Assembly: GCA_050246755.1 (NCBI GenBank)
Contig: JBFWVL010000001.1
Coordinates: 864,001-928,000 of the forward strand
Length of the DNA stretch: 64,000 bases
Direction of reading: 5' to 3'
Origin: Bacteriovoracia bacterium
GTDB taxonomy: Bacteria > Bdellovibrionota > UBA1018 > CAIPTA01
In this document: one piece after another, positions 1,827-20,765 of the stretch
Position numbering within the stretch: position 1 is the stretch's first letter
Layout of the letters: each line of letters begins with the position of its first letter
Made by a program: the position numbers and the translations under genes
Notes under the pieces: generated by a model
The model's database searches: none
Seen by the model: only the letters and a program-made list of their open reading frames with translations
What the model was told of the DNA's origin: nothing

Positions 1827-4121
1827 TTAGCGCTTTGCGGCCTGGGGAAGCTGCGCAGCGTATTCGCGGGAGATGTCCGCGAGCGTCTGTTTAGCGGCTT
1901 CGATGCGGTCGTCGGCCACTTTACGATCTGCGGTGTAAGGAACCAGCAAAGCGTTTACTTCGGCCAAGCGATTGGTTTTCTGGGTGATGGTCTCATTGGT
2001 AGCGATGATTCGCTTATCGAGACTATCACGCAAAGCGGTCTGATCTTTGATGAGCTGTTCGCGATTTTTCACGGAAGCTTTATAGGTCGCGATTTGTTGC
2101 TGAATCGAAGAAACCCGGCTGGCGGTTTTATTCACTTCGGCATCAAGCGCGTCGTAGTTTACCTTCGCCTTATACGCACGGTACGCATCGGTAGAGCGAG
2201 CCACGGCGCGAACCGCGGAGTTCAGCTCTTCGATGGTAGCGTAACGCTGCGACTGCAAATTGGAGAGTTCGTTCTGCAAGCTAGGAATCACGTACTGATT
2301 TAGATCGCGGATACGAGTGTCCATTTGATCGCGGCGGCTTTCGAGGCCGGCAACCCAGCGGCGGGCTTCGGCTTCGCGGCGCACGATTTCGTCGCGCTGG
2401 CGATACACGTCTTGCTCGATCTGGCGCTCGATGCCGTCTTTTTCGGCGGATCTGGCAGCCAAATTATTTTGGGTTTGGGCCAGCGATTGGTTCGCCGTGT
2501 TCAGACGAGCGATGGCGGCATTGAGTTCGTTCCGCTGGGCCGTGCAATCCGGCGCCGAAGGCACAGGTACGGGAGTAGGCACTGGTACCGGCGTGGGAAC
2601 CGGAGTGGGCGTAGGAGTAGGATCAGGGGTTCCGGGGCCATTGCCTCCGCGGCCACCACGGCCTTGTCCGTCGCCACGGCCTTCGCCGCCCCTATCGCCA
2701 CCACCAAAGCCGCCGCCGCGACCACCACGGCCTCCGCGGCCGTTAGCGTCGTCTTCGGCGCTAGCGATAGCGCGGTTTACCAATAATTCGAGGGCGCTAG
2801 CCGCACGTCCGCCTTCGCAGGCACGGAGAGCTTGCTCTCTGGCTAATTGATCAGCCTGAGCGGCAGTCACTTGCTGTTGGTAGGAGCGTACGTTCTGCGT
2901 AAGGGTGCGGATCTCGTTCTCGAGTCCACCCAACCGGCGGTCGCCATCCTTACGGCGACGGATCTCGAAGCTAGGGTCGAAGCTGCGTAATGCGCTTTCG
3001 GCCTCGGCCAAACGCATGCGGGCACGACGGGTTTCGTCTACATTGCGATCAAGCTCGCCACGTAGCTGCTCCGACTCGGCATTGCGATCCGCAAGGTCTT
3101 GCGTCTTGCCGGAAATATTTTGCTCGATATTCGAAAGGTTACTTTCGGCATTCGACTGGCGGTTCTGGTCGTTCTGCAGAAGCGAGCGCAAACGGTCGTG
3201 CTCGGGAACGAACGGTTTAAGGTTCGCGAAAGCGATTTCGTAGGCGGACTGTGCCGATACCAAGAGTGCTTCCTGAGAAGCGATCGAAGCTTTCAACGTA
3301 ATGATATCGCCGTGGGCTTTATCGATCGCGGCTTGGGCGTTATTGCGGGCGGTGATCAAGGCCGGAAGATCGTGGTTCGAAAGCTGGTCGAGAGCGCCAG
3401 CGAGCGTTGCTTTCTCTTGGTTCAGCTTCGCGTAGCGCGCTTCGAGCGCGGCCAATTCGGCATTCATCTTGCCGATATTTTGCTGGGCCGCTACCGCTTT
3501 GGTCACGATATCGCGCAGAAGGCCGGCACGAACGGAATCTACTTTGGTCGCGTCGGTAGTATTTACTTCCGGTGGGAGAAAGTTCTTCTCGAACTGAACG
3601 GAGTTCAGGGCCGGAGAGGCCACGCAGCGTTTTTCGAGTTGCGTGAGCACGGCGGTAGCTCCGCTCATAGAGAAAGGCAGCTCGCCCATTCCGCCAGAGG
3701 CATCCACGTTCAACTGGGCGGAGGCTTTCATTTCCGCGATGAATTTATCGGTGCCACGAGGGAGATTCCAGAAGGTATCTTCGCCTTTAGCAGTGCGCGG
3801 AAGCTTTACGAAAGTATAAGTGCGCCCGGATTCGATGGTTACGCGGAAACTACTCACTTTTGAGGGAGACTTGAAGGGGCGGATCAAAAGCTCCATTGGG
3901 TGCGCGCCGCTTTTATCGATCACCACGTTGAGGGAGTAGGCGCCGTAGTTGCCGAGATAAGTGGCGGTGGCGGCAACGCAGTTGCCCTTGCCCTGCACTC
4001 CGGGTTGGGAATCGTCGAGCGACCAGTCTCCGGAAGAATAGATGGTTTTAGCGTGGGCTTGAGAAGAGAGGGCTAAGGTGATCGTGGTGAGAACGAGCAG
4101 GGCTGGTAGACGAGCGCGCAT
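1827..4121 (-). CDS. large secreted protein: IalB-like N-terminal domain + long coiled coil with Gly-rich/Pro-Thr insertion
   Basis: ATG 4121 with GGAGG SD; signal peptide ending AHA; N-domain GDW...C...FSMSGATAVLTQLEKRC resembles IalB-type folds; long heptad-rich helix. Confidence 0.75.
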   Translation of the reverse strand: MRARLPALLVLTTITLALSSQAHAKTIYSSGDWSLDDSQPGVQGKGNCVAATATYLGNYGAYSLNVVIDKSGAHPMELLIRPFKSPSKVSSFRVTIESGRTYTFVKLPRTAKGEDTFWNLPRGTDKFIAEMKASAQLNVDASGGMGELPFSMSGATAVLTQLEKRCVASPALNSVQFEKNFLPPEVNTTDATKVDSVRAGLLRDIVTKAVAAQQNIGKMNAELAALEARYAKLNQEKATLAGALDQLSNHDLPALITARNNAQAAIDKAHGDIITLKASIASQEALLVSAQSAYEIAFANLKPFVPEHDRLRSLLQNDQNRQSNAESNLSNIEQNISGKTQDLADRNAESEQLRGELDRNVDETRRARMRLAEAESALRSFDPSFEIRRRKDGDRRLGGLENEIRTLTQNVRSYQQQVTAAQADQLAREQALRACEGGRAASALELLVNRAIASAEDDANGRGGRGGRGGGFGGGDRGGEGRGDGQGRGGRGGNGPGTPDPTPTPTPVPTPVPVPTPVPVPSAPDCTAQRNELNAAIARLNTANQSLAQTQNNLAARSAEKDGIERQIEQDVYRQRDEIVRREAEARRWVAGLESRRDQMDTRIRDLNQYVIPSLQNELSNLQSQRYATIEELNSAVRAVARSTDAYRAYKAKVNYDALDAEVNKTASRVSSIQQQIATYKASVKNREQLIKDQTALRDSLDKRIIATNETITQKTNRLAEVNALLVPYTADRKVADDRIEAAKQTLADISREYAAQLPQAAKR
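2545..2745 (-). repeat. low-complexity GRGG / PTPVP coding repeat
   Basis: Encodes GRGGRGGRGGGFGGG...PTPTPTPVPTPVPVPTPVPVP. Confidence 0.85.
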
Positions 4122-4150
4122 GAAAAAAACCTCCGGAACGAACAACTGGG

Positions 4151-4333: not shown

Positions 4334-4594
4334 TTAGTTAACGGCGTCTTTCACTTCGTCGCCCACGTTCTGGGCCTTATGCTTCAGTTTCTTTCCGGCG
4401 CATTCCATTTTGCCATTCACGAGCTCGCAGGTTTTATCCTTCATGTTTCTCGCGCCTTTACGCACGGTTTTTTTCGCGTCTTGAGCAGCCTCGGCCACAT
4501 CTTCCTTCATTTCACTTTCGGCATGCGCCCGCGGAAGAACCGAGGGGAAAGTGGAAAATGCGAATATCGTTGCCATTAGAATTACTTTTTTCAT
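4334..4594 (-). CDS. small secreted LEA-like/hydrophilic protein with one Cys pair
   Basis: Signal peptide ending AHA; K/D/A-rich amphipathic helices; AGGAG SD. Confidence 0.8.
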   Translation of the reverse strand: MKKVILMATIFAFSTFPSVLPRAHAESEMKEDVAEAAQDAKKTVRKGARNMKDKTCELVNGKMECAGKKLKHKAQNVGDEVKDAVN

Positions 4595-4636
4595 TACTGC
4601 TCCTTTGTTTGTTGATGGAAATTTACGGCGTTACGC

Positions 4637-5155
4637 CTAATTTACGCCCGCGAGCACTCCTCTACTCTCTTCTAGAGCAGAGGTGCGAATCGGCAATTGA
4701 ATGATCGGCGCAAGTTTTAGCTTCTCCCGGGCTTCCCAATAACGGTCCCCGAGCTCCACAAGCTCCTCGCGGCTGAGAACTTTCTCCGCCATAGGAAAAA
4801 AATCCTCCTCTTCTTCTTTGAGGTGGTGCTCAAGAAGCTCACATAATACCTTCGTGCGCGTCACCCATTGGTCGTCCGTGGCTGCTTGCTTCAGCTTCAT
4901 CGCCTCGAATTCGGTAACGTCGTGCTCCTCAAGGCCCTCCATCGCGAAAGGACGCAATTTCTCCTCGGTGAGGGCACGCGTGATGAGCGTTTCCTCTTCG
5001 GCAAAGGTATGGCACTCGAGCAAAGGAAGAAGCACAGCATAAATTTTTCTTTTCTCTTCCACGCTTTCGGCCGCCTTAAGTGCCGCCATATTCTGGCGCA
5101 AGAGCTCATGATCCACGAGCAGCAGTTTTATAATGTCGGAGGAATCGTTGCGCAT
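4637..5155 (-). CDS. hemerythrin-like (HHE cation-binding) protein
   Basis: Motifs DH...HTFAEE...EH...HHLKEEE. Confidence 0.9.
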   Translation of the reverse strand: MRNDSSDIIKLLLVDHELLRQNMAALKAAESVEEKRKIYAVLLPLLECHTFAEEETLITRALTEEKLRPFAMEGLEEHDVTEFEAMKLKQAATDDQWVTRTKVLCELLEHHLKEEEEDFFPMAEKVLSREELVELGDRYWEAREKLKLAPIIQLPIRTSALEESRGVLAGVN

Positions 5156-5198
5156 ACTGTTCTCCAGAATCCTTTGTTGGAATACTCAAATAAATCCA

Positions 5199-5381
5199 CT
5201 AGTGGCGGATATGAGGTCCGCGGCCCGAAACAATTCCGGCCACAAAACTAATTACGGCTAAGATCAAGAACACCACTAGTAACGCACGGCCGATTTCCAT
5301 CGATACGCCGGCAATTCCTGTAGCGCCCAGCACTATGGCTATCAAAGCAACCACGAAAAATCCCAAAGCAGTTCTCAACAT
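5199..5381 (-). CDS. DUF1328 (UPF0391, YtjA-like) small membrane protein
   Basis: MLRTALGFFVVALIAIVLGATGIAGVSMEIGRALLVVF matches the family pattern; GGGAGG SD. Confidence 0.9.
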   Translation of the reverse strand: MLRTALGFFVVALIAIVLGATGIAGVSMEIGRALLVVFLILAVISFVAGIVSGRGPHIRH

Positions 5382-5445
5382 AAATTCCTCCCGATTGAGG
5401 GTTAAACGCCTTTTTTAGGCTTCACCCCACGTTTACCGGCTAAAT

Positions 5446-5461
5446 TGCAACGTCGATGCCT
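5446..5461 (-). promoter_or_regulatory. sigma54 -24/-12 promoter for the DUF1328 operon
   Basis: Minus strand AGGCATCGACGTTGCA, close to consensus TGGCAC-N5-TTGCW. Confidence 0.75.
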
Positions 5462-5569
5462 ACGCCGTTTGGAGCCGTACTGCCCTTTCTTGCATAGTAG
5501 GGAGATTCCGGTGGGGCATTGCGCCTCGGTCCATTGGGGACATTTGGTACCCGTGCTATCAATGAACTT

Positions 5570-7102
5570 ATGGAAAAAATACCAATGATAGCCGTGGTTG
5601 AAGACGACGAAGACATTAAAGAACTGGTGACGGCATTCTTCCGTCCCAAAGGGTACCAAGTGACACCCTTCGCTGACGCGCGTTCTCTCCTAAAGGAAGC
5701 GGAAAAAGGAAACTTTCCCTACGACGTAATCCTAACGGACTTAATGCTTCCCCATATTTCGGGGATCGACCTTACAAAAAAATTGCGCGGAATGGGAAAT
5801 GAAACGCCCATCATCCTGATCACGGCCCATAAGGGCTCCGAGAAGGCGATCGAAGCCATCGAAGCCGGCGCGTATGATTTCGTGGTTAAACCCCTACACT
5901 TTCCGCAACTTCAAGTTTCGGTAGAGCGGGCCCTACACTTCAACCGCATTCGCTCGGAGAATCAGGCACTGAAGACCGCGGTAGCCATGAAAGAAAGCGG
6001 AGGCGTAGATGGAATTATCGGGCGCAGTCCCGGGCTATTGCGGGCCGTAGATCTAGCCAAAAGAGTGGCCGATAGTGCCGCGAACGTTTTCGTAACCGGA
6101 GAAACCGGAACGGGCAAAGAAGTGATCGCCAAAGCGATTCACTATTTCGGCCAGCGTAAAAAGCACCCTTTCATCGCTATCAATTGCTCGGCCATTCCCG
6201 AGAATCTTCTCGAAAGCGAGTTATTCGGGCACGCGAAGGGCTCGTTCACCGGCGCCTCCGATAAAAAAATCGGGCTTTTCGAAGAGGCCGGCGAAGGCAC
6301 GCTCTTTCTCGACGAAATCGGCGATCTGAGCCTTCCCTTGCAAGCGAAACTGCTGCGCACTCTTCAAGAACGCAGAATCAAGCGCATCGGCGAAAATCAG
6401 TTTCGTCCGGTGAATGCACGGATCATTTCGGCCACGCACAAAGATCTTCGCGCCGAAGTGAAGGAAAAAACCTTTCGTGAAGATCTTTTCTTCCGCCTCA
6501 ACGTGATTCCAATTAACTTGCCGCCGCTGCGCACGCGCAAGGAAGATATTCTTCCTCTCGCGGAATTCTTCCTTAAGAAATTTTCGGCGATCAACGGTAA
6601 AAAAATCGAAGGCTTTAGCAAATCGGCCCTCGAGTACCTCTTGAAGAACCCATGGACTGGAAACGTGCGCGAGCTGGAGAACAGTATCGAGCGCGCCGTG
6701 GTTCTCTGCGATAGTAACCTGCTGAACAGCAGCGATCTCGTATTGGATCCGATGTCCAATATGGACAGCTCCGTTCCGGCCTTCGATGAGGCCAGCGCGG
6801 TGGCTAGCGCAGCCGCCACCCCTTCTTCGCCCCAGAGCAGCGGATCAAGTGCCTTCTACGGGCTCGCGGGAAGCTCCGACGAAAGCTTGGTAACCCTCGA
6901 TGAGCTAACTAACCGTTACCTGCTCTTTGCCCTAAACAGAAATCATGGCGCTAAAGACAAAACGGCCCGTGACCTCGGGATCGACCGGAAGACCCTATAC
7001 CGGCGCCTGCAGGATATGAATCGCGCCAAGCCAGATCAGCCACTCCCAATGGCGGAAGATCATTTTGGCGCGGCCACCGCGAACTCCAGCTTCACGCAGT
7101 AG
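5570..7102 (+). CDS. NtrC-family sigma54-dependent response regulator (REC-AAA+-HTH)
   Basis: REC (VEDD, TDLMLP, KP), Walker A GETGTGKE, ESELFGHAKGSFTGA, Walker B LFLDEIG, Fis-type HTH LGIDRKTLYRRL. ATG 5570 preferred over TTG 5519. Confidence 0.97.
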   Translation: MEKIPMIAVVEDDEDIKELVTAFFRPKGYQVTPFADARSLLKEAEKGNFPYDVILTDLMLPHISGIDLTKKLRGMGNETPIILITAHKGSEKAIEAIEAGAYDFVVKPLHFPQLQVSVERALHFNRIRSENQALKTAVAMKESGGVDGIIGRSPGLLRAVDLAKRVADSAANVFVTGETGTGKEVIAKAIHYFGQRKKHPFIAINCSAIPENLLESELFGHAKGSFTGASDKKIGLFEEAGEGTLFLDEIGDLSLPLQAKLLRTLQERRIKRIGENQFRPVNARIISATHKDLRAEVKEKTFREDLFFRLNVIPINLPPLRTRKEDILPLAEFFLKKFSAINGKKIEGFSKSALEYLLKNPWTGNVRELENSIERAVVLCDSNLLNSSDLVLDPMSNMDSSVPAFDEASAVASAAATPSSPQSSGSSAFYGLAGSSDESLVTLDELTNRYLLFALNRNHGAKDKTARDLGIDRKTLYRRLQDMNRAKPDQPLPMAEDHFGAATANSSFTQ

Positions 7103-7544
7103 CGTGGCGCGGAGAATTCTTGTAGATCATCTCGATTTGATCGATTACGCCTTCGGCGGATTGCCCTTTAGAGACGACGCCAAGAAATTGGAATCTCTTC
7201 TTTAAGCGGCGCTCCTTTTCCACCTCGGCGCCGTCGCAGGCCGTAACTACGATTACGGGAATTTTTTTCTGCTCGAACCAATCCTGGGGCGCCGCTGGGT
7301 CGAGCGCGAGACCGCTTTCCGCGCGCTCCAGCGAACGAAAACCGTTCATCTCGGGAAGCTGCCAGTCGGTCAAAATTAAATCGTAGCCATGGGCCGACAT
7401 TAAATTTGCCGCTTCGAAGGCATCGTGCGCCAAGGAAACGTTACAGCCGAATTTACGCTCTAAATTAAGCGCCAGCAATTGCCCGTAGGTTTCGTCGTCT
7501 TCAACGAAAAGAATACGGCGGGAAGAAAGCGGATGTTCCAGCAT
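7092..7544 (-). CDS. single-domain response regulator (receiver)
   Basis: ILFVEDD, LILTDWQLPEMNG, VVTA, K; no output domain; AGGAG SD. Confidence 0.9.
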   Translation of the reverse strand: MLEHPLSSRRILFVEDDETYGQLLALNLERKFGCNVSLAHDAFEAANLMSAHGYDLILTDWQLPEMNGFRSLERAESGLALDPAAPQDWFEQKKIPVIVVTACDGAEVEKERRLKKRFQFLGVVSKGQSAEGVIDQIEMIYKNSPRHATA

Positions 7545-7614
7545 AGAAGCTCCTGTTCATCGCACAGTATAGCTTTGCTGGCGCAAAGAAGAGGCGGCCA
7601 AAGTGCCGCGAGAA

Positions 7615-7899
7615 TTACTTAGGGGCTTTTTGCTGCGCGATCCAAGACCGCAATGCGGATAAGCAGGCTTCGGCCTCCGCAGCATCATGGGATTCCGCCA
7701 CCTGCTCTAATTTTTCTCCTAGAACCCCCAAGGAATCGTAGCCAAACGTGGCGGCATTCCCTCTAAGCTGGTGGCCCACTTTCGAAAAAACTTCGAAATC
7801 GCTTTTTTCCAATGCTCCCTGCAGAGAACCTAAATCTTGAGCACGACGATCTATGTACTTTTGGCGCATTTCATCCGGAATAGTTAATACGAAAGTCAT
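7615..7899 (-). CDS. stand-alone Hpt phosphotransfer protein
   Basis: GHQLRGNAATFG motif; ATG 7899 preceded by GGAGGG (alternative start 7911). Confidence 0.9.
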   Translation of the reverse strand: MTFVLTIPDEMRQKYIDRRAQDLGSLQGALEKSDFEVFSKVGHQLRGNAATFGYDSLGVLGEKLEQVAESHDAAEAEACLSALRSWIAQQKAPK

Positions 7900-8082
7900 G
7901 ATGCCCTCCATCAGCTAGAGAATTAGCGAAAAAATAATTTCCAGTTTTATTTTCTATCACGATGAACTGGGCCCATAAAGGTAGTCTTGGAGGCTGACGC
8001 CTTTTGCCACATGAACGGGGCGAATCCGGCATGCGCCGGCTTGATTATACTTTTTAGCCCGCTTTTTCCGGTGTTTGAGAAC

Positions 8083-8098
8083 TGGCATCGCACTTGCG
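8083..8098 (+). promoter_or_regulatory. sigma54 -24/-12 promoter for the csbD operon
   Basis: TGGCATCGCACTTGCG, near-perfect consensus, 52 nt upstream of the csbD ATG. Confidence 0.85.
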
Positions 8099-8150
8099 TA
8101 GCCGTAAGAGCAGTTCGTTCTCACACCGTCAAAAAAGGGGCAAATAAATA

Positions 8151-8387
8151 ATGATCAATGAAAATATCGCCAAAGGTAAGTGGAAAGAGTTCAAGGGACA
8201 AATCCAAAAAGCTTGGGGCAACCTTACCGACGATGAACTTGAAAGCAGCAAAGGCGACGTTAACTCGCTCTCCGGCATGATTCAGAAAAAATACGGAATC
8301 GCGCAGGAAGAAGCTCGCTCGAAACTGAACGACATGATGGCCGGCTTCGGAGATAAAGAAGACAAAGACGCATCAAAACGCCATTAA
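8151..8387 (+). CDS. csbD: CsbD/YjbJ family general stress protein
   Basis: KGKWKEFKGQIQKAWGNLTDDEL...G.IQKKYG is the CsbD signature. Confidence 0.93.
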   Translation: MINENIAKGKWKEFKGQIQKAWGNLTDDELESSKGDVNSLSGMIQKKYGIAQEEARSKLNDMMAGFGDKEDKDASKRH

Positions 8388-8409
8388 TTGGCAACCCAAG
8401 GAGTTAACC

Positions 8410-8640
8410 GTGAAAAAAAGCTCACCGGATTTAAAAAATCAATCCATGAATGAAAAGCCTTCGGTGAGCTCGGGTCAGGCCGACGATGCATTCGGTGGGC
8501 GCCACGGTGGCCGCGAAGACATCCGCAGCAGAGCCGGAGAAGAAAATCTTCTAAAAAATGCTTCCAGTCCAGAACAGGAATTTAACCGTGGCAATCCGAA
8601 ACGCGAGTCGCCGGAACAGAAAAATTCGGCGAGAGAATAG
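8410..8640 (+). CDS. small hydrophilic (hydrophilin-like) hypothetical protein
   Basis: GTG start with AGGAG SD; highly polar sequence; in operon. Confidence 0.7.
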   Translation: MKKSSPDLKNQSMNEKPSVSSGQADDAFGGRHGGREDIRSRAGEENLLKNASSPEQEFNRGNPKRESPEQKNSARE

Positions 8641-8672
8641 TAAGAGCGCCCAAAAGTAAAACAGGAGAATCT

Positions 8673-8939
8673 ATGCAAAATGCAATGAATCAAGATAAAG
8701 CGGAACAAAAATGGAACTCGGCTAAAGGATCTATCGATCGCGCCGTAACGGAAGCCAAGAGCATCGATACCGACGACCTCCGGGCCGTAGCGACCGAGCT
8801 CACCGGCAAAGTACGCGATGTTTCCACGAATCTATACAACGATTCTGTAGGGTTCGTAAAACGCTACCCCGTTAGCTCGGCTCTTGGCCTAGCCGCCGTT
8901 GGTTTCTTCTTGGGTGCATTCACCGCAAAAAGAAAATAA
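8673..8939 (+). CDS. ElaB/YqjD/DUF883-like tail-anchored protein
   Basis: Helical N-part; C-terminal FVKRYPVSSALGLAAVGFFLG...KRK tail anchor; AGGAG SD. Confidence 0.8.
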   Translation: MQNAMNQDKAEQKWNSAKGSIDRAVTEAKSIDTDDLRAVATELTGKVRDVSTNLYNDSVGFVKRYPVSSALGLAAVGFFLGAFTAKRK

Positions 8940-8969
8940 TTATCCCGCGCATCACGCATGCACACGGGA

Positions 8970-9004
8970 AACGCCGGCTTGGAGATCCAAGCCGGCGTTC
9001 TTTA
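8970..9004 (+). terminator. intra-operon hairpin / weak terminator
   Basis: Perfect 13-bp inverted repeat AACGCCGGCTTGG-AGAT-CCAAGCCGGCGTT followed by CTTT. Confidence 0.6.
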
Positions 9005-9022
9005 ATCACGGAGAGGAAATTT

Positions 9023-9559
9023 ATGAGACAGATTCTTATGTTAGTGGGTCAGAGCCTGATGCAACAATTTCTTCGCTCTCCCGATCCGGGACATCACGCT
9101 GCGATCGGCCCCGCTCTATTTGAGCCCGCCAAGGAATTTGCCGCCGAAACCGCACGTGAGGCGATTCGTAAATATGCGCTAGTAGCCACCCTCAGCTTCT
9201 TCTTCTCCCTCTATTTCGTGGCCGGCACATTAATTATGATCACTGCCGCCGCTTCCAGCTTTGACGCCTTTGGCTTCTTCGCTCCCGGCTCGTTCTTTTA
9301 TTCGGGAGTAGCCGTGACGGTTATCTCCCTAGGCGTTTTAGGCGGATGCTATGCATCGGTACGTAAAGGAAAGAAGAAAAAGACAAAAGCCGAAGTGGTA
9401 GAGGCCCAGGTTCCGGCAATTTCGGCTCCGGCTTTTCAATTCGGGCATGTGGCGGAAGCTATTGTTTCGGGAATCATATCCGGCATTGTTAGCCGAAGAT
9501 TTTCCAAGCCTGCACCCGCGCCAACCACGTTACGCGAACGACTCCGCCAAGTAATATAA
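9023..9559 (+). CDS. two-TM membrane protein, YqjE/holin-like position
   Basis: Two hydrophobic segments then a basic patch; follows the ElaB-like gene as yqjE follows yqjD. Confidence 0.6.
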   Translation: MRQILMLVGQSLMQQFLRSPDPGHHAAIGPALFEPAKEFAAETAREAIRKYALVATLSFFFSLYFVAGTLIMITAAASSFDAFGFFAPGSFFYSGVAVTVISLGVLGGCYASVRKGKKKKTKAEVVEAQVPAISAPAFQFGHVAEAIVSGIISGIVSRRFSKPAPAPTTLRERLRQVI

Positions 9560-9577
9560 TTTTAGGGAGAAAGCCTT

Positions 9578-10723
9578 ATGGCCGTTACCAACCGAAAATC
9601 GGAAGGAACGAACTCGGGCCGCCACTGGCCTCTTCCTCCGGTGAACCGCAAGCTTCTTCTAATCTTGGGGCTCGCCCTGGTGGCGATTTCTTTAATCCCA
9701 TTTTGGGGATCGGTAACGGTGGCGGCGGTATTCGCCTTCGGGCTATATCCCTTCGTAAAAAAAATAGCGCAGCGATTCGGGCATGGCCGGCCCCGGATCA
9801 TCGTGGGCCTATGCGTGGCTGCGCTCGCGCTCACCATGATGATGCCCGTCACTTTCTTTAGCGTTCGCCTTTATAATCTCGCCACTACTCCCAAGGACGG
9901 AAATGCTTCCGGGATTTTTTCTTCGCAAACCCTCACCAAAATTGCCTCGGCCAAGGAAAAGATAGAGGCTAGCTTAATTTCTTACGGCGTGAAGGGAAAA
10001 GTTTTCCGTTCTGAGACGGAAGGCATGGAAGCTATCCGTGGCGGGTCCACGAAGGCGATGAACTTCTTCCTCGCCTTTTTTTCGGCAGTGCTTACCTCGC
10101 TTCCAGACGTTTTCCTCGAATTGCTGGTATTTTGCCTCTTCCTCTATCTTTTTCTTTCCCGGGGAAAGCAGATCCGGGATTCCGCGGTGAAATTCGGCAT
10201 CGTGCCCGCCGGAGACGTGGATCGCGTCTCGCACGTAATGCAAACGAGCTGTTATAACTCCCTGATCTCGAATCTTCTCATCGGCCTCATTCAATCCTCG
10301 GTAGTGGCCGCCGGCGCACGGTTGGGAGGGTACAACGAAGTGGTATTGATTTTCTCGGTGGTTTTCCTGCTCTCTTTCATTCCGTTTATCGGCTCTTCCC
10401 CTCTGGCCTTCTTGTTGGCGGGACTCAGCTTACTGAACCAAAACAACGGAAGCGCCGTTATTTTGCTCGTTACGGGGATGATCTCGGGCACTATCGATAA
10501 CGTGATCCGCCCCTACCTCGTAGCCAACGGAGAGAATGAAGTGCATCCGATCGTGAGCTTCGCCGTAATCATCGGCGCAATCGGGGTATTGGGAATAAAA
10601 GGCATATTCTTGGGGCCGGTGATCCTGACAGCCACGGTAGGACTGCTAAATATGCCGCCTCGCGGAGAAAAGGCGGCAGGTATTTCCAATATCCGCCACG
10701 TAAAAACGAAGCAGGCAAGCTAG
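9578..10723 (+). CDS. AI-2E family transporter (YdiK-like)
   Basis: SFIPFIG, IDNVIRPYL, GIKGIFLGPVI motifs. Confidence 0.92.
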   Translation: MAVTNRKSEGTNSGRHWPLPPVNRKLLLILGLALVAISLIPFWGSVTVAAVFAFGLYPFVKKIAQRFGHGRPRIIVGLCVAALALTMMMPVTFFSVRLYNLATTPKDGNASGIFSSQTLTKIASAKEKIEASLISYGVKGKVFRSETEGMEAIRGGSTKAMNFFLAFFSAVLTSLPDVFLELLVFCLFLYLFLSRGKQIRDSAVKFGIVPAGDVDRVSHVMQTSCYNSLISNLLIGLIQSSVVAAGARLGGYNEVVLIFSVVFLLSFIPFIGSSPLAFLLAGLSLLNQNNGSAVILLVTGMISGTIDNVIRPYLVANGENEVHPIVSFAVIIGAIGVLGIKGIFLGPVILTATVGLLNMPPRGEKAAGISNIRHVKTKQAS

Positions 10724-11359
10724 CTACCGTAAACGAACCTGATCCTCGAGTTCGTTAGTGTCGTCGGCCTTCTTGGGAAAGTGCTCGGCGAGTTTTCCGC
10801 CCACTTCTTCCACCACCTCGACGAGCGCATCCCCGGCCGTTCCATTCCGGAGGCCGATAACGATCTTCTTCACTTCTTCGTCCCAATAGGTGGGAGAAAC
10901 TTTTTCGTTGATGCCTTTATCGGCCAATATCACCACACGACGCTCGCGCAGAGAAATATAGATTAAAATCCCGGTGTGGTCGCGAGTATTAAATAACCCT
11001 TCTTTTACGAAGGCGAGCTGCGCGGCGGAGAAAACTTCCTGCTCCATCCAAAGGTCGCCGAGCAGTTTCCTCATTATCCAGGCCGAGCGGCCCAGCAGGG
11101 CGCCCAACGCCAAGCCACCGCCTTGCAGCGCGAAAATCGTAGAGAGCTCCGCGGCGAAGGGCCAATAGTGCGAAAGCCATAGTCCCGTGCAAGTCCCGGC
11201 GGCTAAACCGAGAACTCCGAGAAGAAATACCAGCCATGCGTAGTGAACGCTTTTGGCCGCTATCACGGGCACAATCTCGCCACTGGTTTTAGCTTCGGCC
11301 TTACCAACCGCTGCTTTGATCCGCTGGAGGTCTTGTTTAATAAAAAATCTGCTATTCAT
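10724..11359 (-). CDS. TPM domain membrane protein
   Basis: AEAKTSGEIV, TRDHTGILIYISLRERRVVILADKGI, NEL.D motifs; start at MNSRFF. Confidence 0.9.
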   Translation of the reverse strand: MNSRFFIKQDLQRIKAAVGKAEAKTSGEIVPVIAAKSVHYAWLVFLLGVLGLAAGTCTGLWLSHYWPFAAELSTIFALQGGGLALGALLGRSAWIMRKLLGDLWMEQEVFSAAQLAFVKEGLFNTRDHTGILIYISLRERRVVILADKGINEKVSPTYWDEEVKKIVIGLRNGTAGDALVEVVEEVGGKLAEHFPKKADDTNELEDQVRLR

Positions 11360-11364
11360 CGTGT

Positions 11365-12114
11365 TCACCAAGAGGAAGAGGAACCGCCGCCGCCAAAGCC
11401 GCCGCCTCCTCCACCCCAACTACCACCGCCGCCCCAGCCTCCTCCGCCGCCAAATCCTCCACCACCCCAGTGTCCCCGGCGAGAAGGGCCGAGCACCCCA
11501 CGGCGACTTAGCCCGAATATGCTGAGGAATGCGGGAAACACAAAAAGAAGGAAAAAAATGAGCGCGAAAACCATGATGGGCATGGGAACTATCGGCCGTC
11601 TCTTATACGCCTGCGCATCCCCTTCCCCCTCTTTCAGGCCGAGGGGGATTTTCTCCTGCAGGCTAGCGATTCCGGCGGTGATTCCTCCGTAGTAATTTCC
11701 ATCGCGAAAAAGCGGGCGCACCGTATTGTCGAGCACCCGGCGCGTGAAGGCATCCGTGAGCTCGCCTTCCAGCCCGTAGCCCACTTCGAAACGCATTTTG
11801 CGTTCTTTAGGGGCCACTACGAAGAGCAATCCTTTATCTTCTTTCTTCCGGCCGAGCTGCCATTTCTCGGCCACGGCAATAGAAAAATCCTCAATCGCGC
11901 GCCCTTGCAACGAAGAGGCAATGTATACCGCAATCTCTACGCCCGAATTTGCTTTGATATCCCTAAGCCAGGCCTCGAGCTGCTGCACTTCTCCGGGTTG
12001 CAAAATTCCCAGTTCGTCCACCACCGGAGCTGGCGCGCGAATCGCGATGCTGCTGTCCCAGGCCCAAGCTGGGAGAGAGAAAAACAGCAGCAGTGCCAAG
12101 CTCGCGAGACGCAC
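11365..12114 (-). CDS. TPM domain protein (YgcG-like) with Gly-rich tail
   Basis: WQLGRKKEDKGLL...RFEVGYGLEG; C-terminal GGGFGGGGSSSSW. Confidence 0.93.
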   Translation of the reverse strand: MRLASLALLLFFSLPAWAWDSSIAIRAPAPVVDELGILQPGEVQQLEAWLRDIKANSGVEIAVYIASSLQGRAIEDFSIAVAEKWQLGRKKEDKGLLFVVAPKERKMRFEVGYGLEGELTDAFTRRVLDNTVRPLFRDGNYYGGITAGIASLQEKIPLGLKEGEGDAQAYKRRPIVPMPIMVFALIFFLLFVFPAFLSIFGLSRRGVLGPSRRGHWGGGGFGGGGGWGGGGSWGGGGGGFGGGGSSSSW

Positions 12115-12689
12115 TAGAATTTCACTTCGGGCGCTTTCTCGGCGCCGGCCGTGGTGGCCTTAAACGTTTCGCGCGGTTCTAGGTGCAGCAAAAATTTCGC
12201 GGTCAAGTTCGTGGGAAAGAAGCGAACCTGTTTATTGAAATCGGCTACGGTATCGATATAGCGCTTGCGGGCCACGGTGATCCGGTTCTCCGTGCCCTCG
12301 AGTTGCGACTGAAGATCGCGAAAATTTTCATTTGCTTTGAGATCAGGATATTTCTCGATCACCACCATCAAACGGCTAAGCGCGGAGGACAACTGCCCCT
12401 GAGATTGTTCGAACTTCTCGAAAGATTTGCTGTCCGACAACTTCGAAACATCTACCTTCGTCTGAGTGGCTTCGGCTCTCGCCTTAACCACCGCTTCGAG
12501 GGTTTCCTTTTCGTGCTTGGCATAGCCCTTCACGGTATTCACTAAGTTCGGAACAAGGTCCGAACGGCGCTGGTATTGATTTTCCACTTCCGACCAAGAA
12601 GCTTTCACGTCTTCGTCCAACCCTTGCAAGCTATTATAGCCGCAGGACATTAGGGTTAAACTCATCAATGCGATCCATATTTTCTTCAT
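12114..12689 (-). CDS. lemA: LemA family protein
   Basis: [31 protein letters not shown]. Confidence 0.95.
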
Positions 12690-18106: not shown

Positions 18107-19063
18107 ATGACTATGATTCCAAAATCGAAAACACGAAATAACGAAGTAAATTCAATTACTTCAACAAGGCGATTTTGGCCCTGGGAATATTGGCGCACCG
18201 AACTCGAGACATTTTTCCCCGCATTCGGCGGGAAATTTTCCCGCGATCGCACCACCACCTTGGCCGCTTCGTTGGCTTTTTACACCGTGCTCTCGCTCGC
18301 TCCGCTCTCGGTGGTGATTCTTTTCGCTTTTTCCCAGCTCGATCAGTCCCTCATCGATCGCTTTGCCAATGAAACCGCCCGCCTCGTAGGTACCTCGGGC
18401 GGCTCGGCTGTGCTAGCGGCCATAGAAAGCGCCAAGGCCCGACCTGCCACCGGCGGCCTCGCGAGCATCGTGAGCTTCCTGGTGGTTCTTGTTTCGTCGG
18501 GAGCCATGTTCGCGGAAGTACGCGATTCACTCTCCATCGTGTTTGAAAACGTGGAACCCACCGAAGTACCCTCTAGTTTTCTCGGTAAATCTTGGGGCCT
18601 GGTTCGTACGCGCCTGCTCTCGGCTGGGTTTGCGCTCACCGTAGTTCTAGTAATGGCGATCTCCCTGGTACTTTCGGCCTTCCTAACCGCCATGGCCGAA
18701 CGAGCGGGCCTGGTCTCAATTGATTTAGTGATCAGTCTCAGCCTCTACGCTGCCATCTTCACCCTTCTATTCATGTACGGCACGAAACCCGGGCTCCGCT
18801 TTCGCGATGCTGTACGCGGCGGAGTCCTAACTGCCGTTCTCTTCATTGCCGGAAAAATCCTGATCGGCTTCTACGTGGGTAATAGCTCCATCGCTAATTC
18901 CTACGGAGCGGCGGGATCTCTCGTGGCGCTGCTCGTGTGGATTTACTGGGCCACCTTGATCGTTTTCTCCGGCGCCCAATGTGCCTGGCTGCTGGCCGAA
19001 AACCGCTACCGCACCTATGGCACCCCCGCCGATGTGCTGCATTTCAAGGGCAAAAAGCGATGA
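18107..19063 (+). CDS. YihY/virulence factor BrkB family membrane protein
   Basis: AASLAFYTVLSLAP and YGAAGSLVALLVWIY motifs; exact start uncertain. Confidence 0.92.
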   Translation: MTMIPKSKTRNNEVNSITSTRRFWPWEYWRTELETFFPAFGGKFSRDRTTTLAASLAFYTVLSLAPLSVVILFAFSQLDQSLIDRFANETARLVGTSGGSAVLAAIESAKARPATGGLASIVSFLVVLVSSGAMFAEVRDSLSIVFENVEPTEVPSSFLGKSWGLVRTRLLSAGFALTVVLVMAISLVLSAFLTAMAERAGLVSIDLVISLSLYAAIFTLLFMYGTKPGLRFRDAVRGGVLTAVLFIAGKILIGFYVGNSSIANSYGAAGSLVALLVWIYWATLIVFSGAQCAWLLAENRYRTYGTPADVLHFKGKKR

Positions 19064-20142
19064 GAAGCTCTAATCGCTCTTGGTGGAGCCGGCCCCACTG
19101 GATCCTATTCTCGGTGATCGTGATTTTGGTGGCCATCCGCGTGGCGCTTCCGAGCATCATTCTCAGAAAGTTAAATAATTCTCTCGCGAACCTCGAGGGA
19201 CCGCTCTGTGGCCATATCGCCGACGTGGACCTCGCCATCATTCGCGGCGCCTACGAGCTGCAGGACTTCACCCTCATGAGCCGCACCAAAAGTGGCGCGT
19301 GCCGCGAAAAGCTTCTTTCGGTGGAGCGCACCAAAATTTCCGCCGCCTGGGGCGAGCTCTTAAAGGGAAAAGCGCGGCTACGCGTGGACCTATTCGCTCC
19401 CCAGGTGGCCGTGGACCCTCTCATCACGGCCCTTGAGACCAGTGACAAACGGGCGGAAGCCGCCGTGGGGGCGCAGAAAACCTGGGACATTCTCGTTCCC
19501 TGGCGCATCGATGCGCTCGGAATCCGCGAAGGCAAAGCCTACTTCGTGCTTTTTGGCCAAGGCGGAATCAGCACGCCCCTAGAACAAGTGGAAGGAGAGG
19601 TGACCGGGATCGAATCCAGCATCGCCTCCGAGCTTCCGATTCTCTACCGCATTAAGGGTTCTATTTTTGGCGGATCTTCTTTAGTAGCCGCCGGCTCCAT
19701 GGCCCTCGGCCCTGGTCCCACCCGCTGGGAAGTAGATTTCAATGCCGAGCAGGTAGACCTCACCAACGCCAATCCATTTCTCTACAACCGCGTTCCGCTC
19801 ACATTCACTACCGGCAAACTGGATCTCTTTGGCGAAGCCGCCGGCAAAGGCGCCGACGTAGAGGGATACGTGCGAACGATTTTTACGAAAGTAGACGTGG
19901 TGGGGAATCGCGAGAAGTGGAAAAACTTTAGCCAAGGGCTCTACGAAATCGTGAGTGCGCTTTTCTTCGTGATTTCCAAAAATACGCGCGTGCACACCGT
20001 GGGTACGGAACTAGTATTCCATAAAAAAGGAACCGATACGGTAGTGGACTGGGCCGGCGCTGTAGCGCGAGCCCTTCAACATTCTGGCGGTAAACTCGTT
20101 CCTCGCGGCGTAGACAATAGTCTCGGGCTGCCAAAACCTTAA
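19060..20142 (+). CDS. DUF748/AsmA-like protein
   Basis: ATGA overlap with the yihY stop; N-terminal TM then GHIADVDLAIIRGAY, G.LDLFGE, EGYVR pattern of DUF748. Confidence 0.75.
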   Translation: MRSSNRSWWSRPHWILFSVIVILVAIRVALPSIILRKLNNSLANLEGPLCGHIADVDLAIIRGAYELQDFTLMSRTKSGACREKLLSVERTKISAAWGELLKGKARLRVDLFAPQVAVDPLITALETSDKRAEAAVGAQKTWDILVPWRIDALGIREGKAYFVLFGQGGISTPLEQVEGEVTGIESSIASELPILYRIKGSIFGGSSLVAAGSMALGPGPTRWEVDFNAEQVDLTNANPFLYNRVPLTFTTGKLDLFGEAAGKGADVEGYVRTIFTKVDVVGNREKWKNFSQGLYEIVSALFFVISKNTRVHTVGTELVFHKKGTDTVVDWAGAVARALQHSGGKLVPRGVDNSLGLPKP

Positions 20143-20165
20143 ACTGACCAGCGAAAGGAACTCTC

Positions 20166-20765
20166 ATGAAAAAACTTCTTCTAGCTCTCACGGCGATCGC
20201 GCATGCCTCCTTAGTCTCGGCTTGCTCTACTAGTCCCACTCCCCGCAATATGCCGGTCACGGAAAACAAGGACATCCGCACCGTGGAAGCCAAGTACGCC
20301 GCTAGCGAACTTGGCGCCCAGGAAGTAGCAGAGATCCGTTTTCCCAAAAATTCCACCCGCATCAGGAAAGCGGAGCTGAGAAAACTGAATGCGGCCCTCG
20401 TGAAGGCCCAGGCCGCAGGGAAGATAGAAGAAATTAAAGTGATCGCCTGGGCCGATCGGGAATTCCCTTCCTTCAATAGCGGCTCCCTTCCCAAAGCAGA
20501 CCAAGCCTTGGCGGAACGTCGCACGGAAGAGATTGGCAAGGCTCTGGCCAACAAGGTGAAAGACGTAGACGTGGATAAATATAATATGGCCGTATACCCC
20601 ACGGGCGTAGACCGCCTTTTTAAGACTTCCGACTTCCGGGTGAAACGCTCCCTAGAGCAAGCTGGGATCCCGAACTCCGATTCGGGAGTAAAAACACCTG
20701 CGATGTCGGGAAAGGCGCTCGTTATGATTTTGCTGGAGAAAAAACCGGCTCCCGCTTCGAACTAA
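20166..20765 (+). CDS. lipoprotein with OmpA-C-like degenerate motif
   Basis: Lipobox VSAC; IRF...KVIAWAD...DQALAERR resembles the OmpA-like peptidoglycan-binding fold. Confidence 0.6.
   Translation: MKKLLLALTAIAHASLVSACSTSPTPRNMPVTENKDIRTVEAKYAASELGAQEVAEIRFPKNSTRIRKAELRKLNAALVKAQAAGKIEEIKVIAWADREFPSFNSGSLPKADQALAERRTEEIGKALANKVKDVDVDKYNMAVYPTGVDRLFKTSDFRVKRSLEQAGIPNSDSGVKTPAMSGKALVMILLEKKPAPASN

Follow-up and report, generated by a model that had tools for sequence, protein, structure and literature searches.

Among described systems that resemble the one considered here is the LuxU–LuxO relay of Vibrio, in which the luxO and luxU genes are adjacent, the targets of LuxO are the Qrr small RNAs, and LuxO is identified as a sigma54 activator by the name of its NCBIfam model. 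In the accessible part of one account, sensor kinases of this relay signal through a stand-alone phosphotransferase to a response regulator (PMC10841015). Genes for small stress proteins are known from regulons of another kind: the available portions of the sources list yjbJ, ytjA, and ymgE as RpoS-controlled in Salmonella (PMC5437024) and csbD as EcfG-controlled (PMC7083833), and the sigma factor list for Bdellovibrio bacteriovorus HD100 in the accessible text of PMC3464611 names no RpoS. Here, we describe a locus at positions 4334–10723 of a 64,000-nucleotide stretch, the window (assembly GCA_050246755.1, contig JBFWVL010000001.1, forward-strand positions 864,001 to 928,000), of Bacteriovoracia bacterium, a member of the Bdellovibrionota with a genome of 3.55 Mb that is 95.7% complete. 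At this locus, a sigma54 activator, a lone receiver, and a lone Hpt protein lie between two operons of stress genes.

We put at about 0.62 the probability that this locus encodes the central part of a general-stress (stationary-phase-type) regulon that sigma54 drives in the Bdellovibrionota, with an Hpt relay to the activator. The reading is carried by the genes and motifs present at the locus, by the linkage of activator, Hpt, and stress genes, by an enrichment of -24/-12 elements, by the recurrence of a palindrome upstream of them, and by the lack of RpoS and SigB in the sampled genomes. Control of general stress genes by sigma54 and a phosphorelay was the original prediction, made from the sequence alone, and the computational tests proposed with it all came out in its favor. 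Induction by stress or dormancy is suggested by the identity of the genes.

Locus Architecture and sigma54 Promoters

Every gene that had been named at 4334–10723 was found by Pfam and NCBIfam scans and a check of open reading frames (ORFs), Pfam recognizing the activator, receiver, Hpt, CsbD, DUF1328, hemerythrin, and AI-2E proteins. The center of the locus holds the 510-residue activator (5570..7102, plus strand), which is convergent with the stand-alone Hpt protein (7615..7911; 98 residues, His in GHQLRG) and the single-domain receiver (7092..7544; 150 residues), both on the minus strand. The left operon, on the minus strand, runs from DUF1328 through a hemerythrin gene to a gene for an 86-residue small protein, and the right operon, on the plus strand, comprises csbD, a 76-residue hydrophilic ORF, an ElaB-like gene, a gene for a 178-residue membrane protein, and an AI-2E transporter gene.

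The activator has matches to PF00072, PF00158 (Sigma54_activat), PF25601, and PF02954 (HTH_8), the NtrC-type arrangement of REC, AAA, and Fis-type HTH domains. It carries Asp57, a GSFTGA loop, the signature KPLHFPQL, and the recognition helix IDRKTLYR. Asp57 and the GETGTGKE and FLDEIG motifs are invariant, and the phosphoacceptor and ATPase motifs are intact. The loop reads GAFTGA in several orthologs; among the activators to which PMC4641369 assigns targets, one has a GSFTGA loop. With target promoters of the -24/-12 type and an rpoN gene in the same genome, these domains and motifs provide, at the level of sequence, the features of an NtrC-type system.

Both operons are preceded by a canonical GG-N10-GC element with 10-nucleotide (nt) spacing, as had been predicted. 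The left element (5444..5462, minus strand; GG 5460–5459, GC 5448–5447) scores 13.3 with a predicted start near 5435, and the csbD element (8082..8100, plus strand; GG 8084–8085, GC 8096–8097) scores 16.3 with a predicted start near 8109. The scoring matrix was trained on other sites of the same genome. Eight sites in the whole 64-kb window score at least 11, and the two promoters are the only ones of these within 4334–10723; a score of at least 10 is reached by 0.6% of shuffled upstream regions.

With a threshold of at least 10 and a distance of 25–140 nt from the gene start, a sigma54 site precedes 20 of 36 csbD genes and 10 of 15 DUF1328 genes of the class (window included) and 5/7 hemerythrin genes, three of the seven being from this genome. 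The corresponding control rates are 114/1810 for the lead genes of this genome (~6%), 0/24 for Hpt genes, and 2/31 for activator genes. The -24/-12 elements are kept before csbD and DUF1328 in class relatives. Across this genome, the sites found before lead genes mostly precede genes for secreted proteins or lipoproteins.

Outside the Bdellovibrionota, csbD carries a sigma54 site in 1/31 cases in the Pseudomonadota (the phylum of a Colwellia record), 5/21 in that of a Myxococcaceae record, and 2/11 in that of a Desulfobacterales record, with a shuffle expectation of less than 1 in each of the three. Rewiring of stress genes to sigma54 may thus extend beyond the Bdellovibrionota, since strong csbD or DUF1328 sites occur in two other phyla (L306–L310, L316, L354, and L358); at two of these loci an activator lies within 1.5 kb.

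A Predicted Activator Site Upstream of the Promoters

The original prediction had pointed to GGCATCG as a sequence shared by the two promoters. It is common to both window sites but is not a conserved signature: there are seven genome matches with TTGC, it occurs in 3/146 sigma54 sites, and it is not kept in orthologs. Because orthologous promoters vary there, GGCATCG is not a conserved specificity element.

A de novo search by palindromic expectation maximization covered the 130 nt that precede each of 40 stress-gene promoters. It yielded GGGGCA-N3-TGCCCC with a log-likelihood of 67 at width 15; eight sets drawn at random from the sigma54 promoters of the genome gave 42–60, and eight shuffles gave 21–26. 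In the window, the predicted site of the left promoter (5512..5528; score 13.8) lies 51 nt from the GG and also sits just upstream of the activator gene, with a weaker second predicted site at 5535–5551 (score 5.5). The predicted site of the csbD promoter (7995..8011; score 12.2) lies 72 nt from the GG. The sites at 5512–5528 and 7995–8011 belonged to the training set.

Held-out loci were taken from other classes: 20 loci carrying the clade activator described below, with 61 stress genes, 25 of which have a sigma54 site. A palindrome scoring at least 10 is found at 11/25 of these, as opposed to 14/142 of the remaining sigma54 promoters in the window's genome (Fisher p = 1e-4), a value that is overstated because kin are not independent and whose background, to its detriment, comes from a different genome. 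At loci lacking the clade activator the figure is 1/12. The distance to the GG in held-out loci is 48–55 nt for 10 of 14 sites. Helical phasing was considered as further evidence and set aside, the training value (R = 0.70 at 10.5 nt) being driven by close kin and the outside value being weak (R = 0.43, p = 0.04). The specificity element of the regulon is likely this upstream palindrome rather than GGCATCG.

The best-ranked promoter of this genome outside the training set precedes a YmgE/transglycosylase-associated gene; other palindrome-bearing promoters precede a second DUF1328 gene, a universal stress protein gene, an operon of a KaiC-like protein plus kinase, genes for CBS proteins, and a sister activator–Hpt operon. 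The KaiC region (L232:2200-7444; G000:C7:86200-91444) encodes a KaiC-like ATPase, a histidine kinase, the second DUF1328 protein, and three receivers, and has two promoters that combine a sigma54 site with the palindrome.

The sister activator at L006:2246-4074 (G000:C3:80245-82073) is followed by its own lone Hpt gene and preceded by a sigma54 site and a palindrome (13.8); the pair is conserved in L126, L128, L130, and L133 and may be a second tier of a cascade. CBS-domain genes around a third sister activator (L137; G000:C4:84884-93018) carry TGAGAC-N5-GTCTCA-type and sigma54 sites, which suggests a separate small regulon.

In the window, two high-scoring palindromes (18181–18221) stand at an operon on the plus strand (18181–20765) for BrkB/YihY, DUF748, and a 199-residue protein, homologs of the latter two being found in stress clusters of L216 and L217. 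This BrkB/YihY–DUF748 operon (~18–20.8 kb) is a doubtful member of the regulon: the palindromes may lie in coding sequence, and there is no -24/-12 site of at least 11 nearby.

Conservation of the Activator Clade

In a FastTree analysis, from which nine long-branch or partial rows had been removed, activators encoded near csbD and DUF1328 group in one clade, comprising 36 of 67 rows, with an SH-like support of 99, and a quick IQ-TREE run on 51 rows agrees. The clade spans nine families (f1, f4, f5, f7, f10, f20, f21, f23, and f29) and is marked by the signature KP-x-HFPQL and by an almost invariant recognition helix, IDRKTLY. Of the 22 activators of this genome, a single one falls in the clade, and no other lies within 14 kb of a hallmark stress gene. 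The closest activator found, from an uncultured Bdellovibrionales bacterium, is 80% identical.

Counting the tree rows, one partial gene, and one frameshifted gene, there are 38 clade loci, of which 33 have a lone Hpt gene and 32 a hallmark stress gene; these proportions are biased, since Hpt, csbD, or DUF1328 itself served to find many of the loci, a point that counts against our reading. A less-biased set of 11 loci chosen by an activator codon motif alone (L276–L284, L286, and L287) has Hpt at 11/11, a stress gene at 9/11, and a hybrid kinase directly upstream of Hpt at 6/11, with the reservation that all 11 belong to family f20 and that kin are not independent. The synteny anticipated from the window is thus found across the phylum, in that activator, Hpt, and stress genes are kept together in nine families. 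Recurring neighbors in relatives encode ferritin/Dps-like, DUF2383, Fe/Mn and Cu/Zn superoxide dismutase, BON, PLD plus EEP, OmpA-type, and AI-2E proteins. Within the genus, copies of the lone receiver share about 51% identity, compared with 28–34% at five other loci; being closely kept in the genus only, it is an accessory part.

In terms of distribution, a codon pattern for the clade motif occurs in 92/301 genomes, a count that is not a prevalence because the pattern is noisy and misses variant motifs: 22 of 30 loci were real activators, and the clade activator was missing from 5 of 20 wider loci. A search of representative proteins returned the clade motif in 3 of the best 150 matches, and a plasmid search returned generic activators only, the best rows being 36–39% identical. 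The module looks phylum-wide but patchy, and the regulon compact rather than universal. At two loci of family f5 (L120:9568-10743 and L121:10085-11254), a gene combining a DACNK sensor with a diadenylate-cyclase-like domain adjoins the clade activator–Hpt pair, and no hallmark stress gene was detected.

Proposed Phosphorelay and Candidate Kinases

By analogy with LuxU–LuxO, hybrid kinases would pass phosphate to the lone Hpt protein and from there to Asp57 of the activator. The activator would bind its predicted GGGGCA-N3-TGCCCC site upstream, and its ATPase would open the promoters of the -24/-12 type that precede csbD, DUF1328, and related genes, resulting in the synthesis of small stress proteins. 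The lone receiver could serve as a phosphate sink or modulator.

A hybrid kinase encoded elsewhere had been postulated, and none is present at the locus; in relatives, such kinases stand beside Hpt. Three scanned kinases among the six upstream of Hpt in f20 loci have the architecture CHASE-HisKA-HATPase-REC, REC-HisKA-HATPase-REC kinases are found nearby in L124, L157, L216, and L291, and the inputs of linked kinases include CHASE, CHASE3, PAS-GAF, or none. This genome encodes four hybrid kinases that end in a receiver: C1:195865, C3:131675 (CHASE3-PAS), C2:75597 (CHASE3-GAF with three receivers, beside cheR/cheB), and C5:244602 (poly-HAMP-GAF). The best candidates are C5:244602-250223 and its neighbor C5:250673-252844, because homologs of both adjoin the clade activator: in G004, the kinase upstream of it matches C5:244602 at 65% identity across 418 aligned residues, and in G037, the kinase beside it is 47% identical to C5:250673.

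Sigma Factor Inventory

The genome has five sigma70-family genes, encoding RpoD, two FliA, RpoH, and one ECF factor (169 residues), and one rpoN gene. In keeping with the predicted sigma54 route, RpoS above the cut-off was found in 0/301 phylum genomes, in a search whose E. coli-type control was positive in 1/14, and SigB/F/G in 0/201 phylum genomes. The 150 sub-threshold RpoS matches listed lie in ORFs of 484–761 residues, nearly all of RpoD length. This genome has three STAS domains and one SpoIIE domain, yet no SigB, and the NepR anti-sigma factor was not found in it at its 95.7% completeness. With RpoS and SigB not found in the sampled genomes and the activator, Hpt, and stress-gene promoters conserved, the general stress genes are likely switched on by the sigma54 route.

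Points Against and Alternative Readings

Several observations weigh against a general-stress regulon run by this activator. In the class, 16 of 36 csbD genes have no sigma54 site, some of them because they are second in an operon, and in other classes of the phylum, sites occur at 18/51 DUF1328 and 5/16 csbD genes (a few loci overlap). The genes themselves are far from universal, csbD being found in 34/96 class genomes and DUF1328 in 135/301 phylum genomes. Sigma54 is widely used in this genome, and with 146 sites and 22 activators (22–23 by our count), a site alone does not identify its activator. Stress genes carry a sigma54 site in 12/55 cases at loci without the clade activator. Two sister activators (C3:80245 and C4:88335) have recognition helices similar to that of the clade, with TGAGAC-type sites nearby, and cross-talk is therefore possible. 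For many of the highest-ranking palindrome promoters, the downstream gene encodes a protein of unknown function, and none of the 146 sigma54 sites belongs to the Dps-like, GSP26-like, or PLD plus EEP genes of this genome.

The module is also missing from its site or disrupted in relatives. In L278, the gene order is Lon, a 612-residue transporter, the module (~7 kb), PilZ, a 109-residue ORF, nitroreductase, and AI-2E. In the accessible part of an HD100 table (PMC3627812, supplementary file 2), Bd2144, Bd2145, Bd2147, Bd2148, Bd2149, and Bd2150 are contiguous, with lengths that match or resemble those of the genes flanking the module in L278; HD100 thus lacks the module at this position. The transglycosylase-associated genes Bd1276 and Bd1857 are, in the same table, not in such a cluster. 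In L277:8197-9686 (G181:C1, ~1762200–1763700), a short deletion just past the receiver shifts the frame and splits the activator, which is either a natural loss or an assembly error; the near-identical activator of L278 is intact. From the HD100 site and this frameshift, the module is dispensable in some lineages.

Of the alternatives, the one that survives best, while still unlikely, keeps the same wiring and gives it a specific output, a life-cycle stage or an osmotic or envelope stress, rather than general cross-protection. A regulon that looks small, several classic stress genes of this genome without sites, the many targets that are small membrane proteins, lipoproteins, or secreted proteins, and the dispensability in HD100, as judged from the table excerpt, are consistent with such a programme. 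However, the recurring targets are genes common to the RpoS, SigB, and EcfG regulons in the accessible parts of the sources cited here, their neighbors cover oxidative, membrane, and storage functions, and the kinase inputs are as varied as expected of an integrator.

More doubtful is the notion that the Hpt protein and the lone receiver do not feed the activator, which would be phosphorylated directly by a classical kinase while Hpt serves another relay. No Hpt gene is seen at 5/38 clade loci in the stretch covered (some on short contigs), some loci carry classical or REC–histidine kinases, and the Hpt–receiver pair of the window is convergent with the activator and not co-transcribed with it; against this stand the 33/38 loci with Hpt, which often forms one operon with the activator or a hybrid kinase.

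The least probable alternative, in which the stress genes depend on sigma54 through another activator such as C3:80245 or C4:88335 and the adjacent activator–Hpt pair controls something else, draws on the 22 activators of the genome, on the sites at loci without the clade activator (12/55) and before csbD in two other phyla (5/21 and 2/11), and on the Hpt gene beside C3:80245, but it is disfavored by a linkage kept over nine families, by a palindrome that follows the clade activator (11/25 versus 1/12), and by the almost invariant recognition helix of the clade.

Other Genes of the Locus and Its Surroundings

The remaining features of the locus are as follows from left to right. The 86-residue protein (4334..4594, minus strand) has a signal-peptide-like N terminus, a K/A/E-rich body, and no Pfam match, and its family is seen repeatedly at stress loci of relatives. 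The hemerythrin HHE-domain protein (4637..5155, minus strand; Pfam) shows a weak likeness, under the cut-off, to the PA2171 persister family, and the DUF1328/YtjA small membrane protein (5199..5381, minus strand; Pfam) is encoded by the first gene of the left operon. In the right operon, all on the plus strand, CsbD/YjbJ (8151..8387; Pfam) is followed by the 76-residue, very hydrophilic protein (8410..8640), which has no family match and whose position is occupied by a dissimilar hydrophilic ORF in a same-genus relative. The tail-anchored protein at 8673..8939 stands where an ElaB/YqjD-like gene had been called; the position holds, and the assignment is weak, with no Pfam match and an NCBIfam match to PRK10132 at E = 0.006. 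A homolog at L279, found with a profile built from this protein, matches DUF883_C.

A long GC-rich hairpin with a short T tail (8970..8999, plus strand), seen directly and not flagged by a scan, lies in the gap that separates the elaB-like gene from the one following it and is possibly a partial terminator or mRNA stabilizer. The 178-residue membrane protein (9023..9559) has no family match and was found within the genus only, among the loci searched. The AI-2E family transporter (9578..10723; Pfam) belongs to genes that recur at clade loci; in G002, a 389-residue ORF without a Pfam match replaces it in position (L119:7210-8379), and csbD was not found there.

Converging on the AI-2E gene are LemA and two TPM-domain genes (10724–12689, minus strand), and the same operon lies a few kb off in G002. 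On the other side of the locus (1827–4145, minus strand), a 772-residue secreted-looking protein has long coiled coils and no family over the cut-off.

Comparison with Known Systems

Sigma54 activators tied to stress or starvation have been described before. In Myxococcus xanthus, the sigma54 activator Nla28 has been proposed to belong to a general stress response that starvation induces; compared by description, it differs in its half-site, CT(C/G)CG(C/G)AG, and in its developmental target genes, and csbD is unmentioned in the accessible main text (PMC9765219). The Desulfovibrio vulgaris response regulator DVU3305, also compared by description, is a sigma54 regulator entered under "General stress response, transmembrane transport"; it has two local operons only, and Hpt is unmentioned in the main text available (PMC4641369). 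In the Rrp2–RpoN–RpoS pathway of Borrelia, as given in the accessible part of PMC4014564, sigma54 and an enhancer-binding protein likewise head an RpoS-linked programme. There, sigma54 transcribes rpoS; in the present case, rpoS was not found, and it is the stress genes themselves that bear sigma54 sites.

The present locus is reminiscent of LuxU–LuxO in that a stand-alone Hpt protein is linked to the activator and hybrid kinases stand beside Hpt, the likeness here being one of genomic linkage alone. The activator scores 350 bits against a LuxO cut-off of 800 and so falls outside that family; the predicted targets here are stress-protein operons, and the kinase inputs differ.

Wiring of this kind had not been known to the original prediction, and the full-text literature searched, a body outside which most subscription journals and supplements lie, gave no description of an Hpt relay through which sigma54 directly controls csbD, ytjA, or ymgE. 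Neither the Bdellovibrionota nor csbD is mentioned in PMC12316311, and a look-up in PMC3539863 was likewise blank. The literature found offers no explanation of how predators lacking RpoS and SigB live through stressful periods without prey; the reading preferred here, a sigma54-driven general-stress regulon, names a regulator, a relay, a predicted binding motif, and target promoters. Differences in strain survival relevant to predator biocontrol could trace to whether one ~7-kb module is present or lost, and, if the reading is true, rewiring can bring this same set of stress genes under sigma54.

With RpoS, SigB, and EcfG–NepR–PhyR, the locus has predicted hallmark outputs in common, as far as the accessible portions of the sources go (PMC5437024, PMC13101641, and PMC7083833). 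Those systems have a dedicated sigma70-family factor, whereas specificity here would come from the activator of a shared sigma54. The chances are about even that the Bdellovibrionota hold a fourth general-stress architecture beside these three, a joint reading in which a dedicated stress sigma factor is lacking, several hybrid kinases feed a single Hpt protein, Hpt switches on one ancestral sigma54 activator, palindromes mark the regulon, and the arrangement went unnoticed because HD100, the main laboratory strain, lacks the module at its usual site. What is likely new here, among sigma54 activators tied to stress, is a variant of general-stress control in which sigma54 would take the place of a dedicated stress sigma factor.

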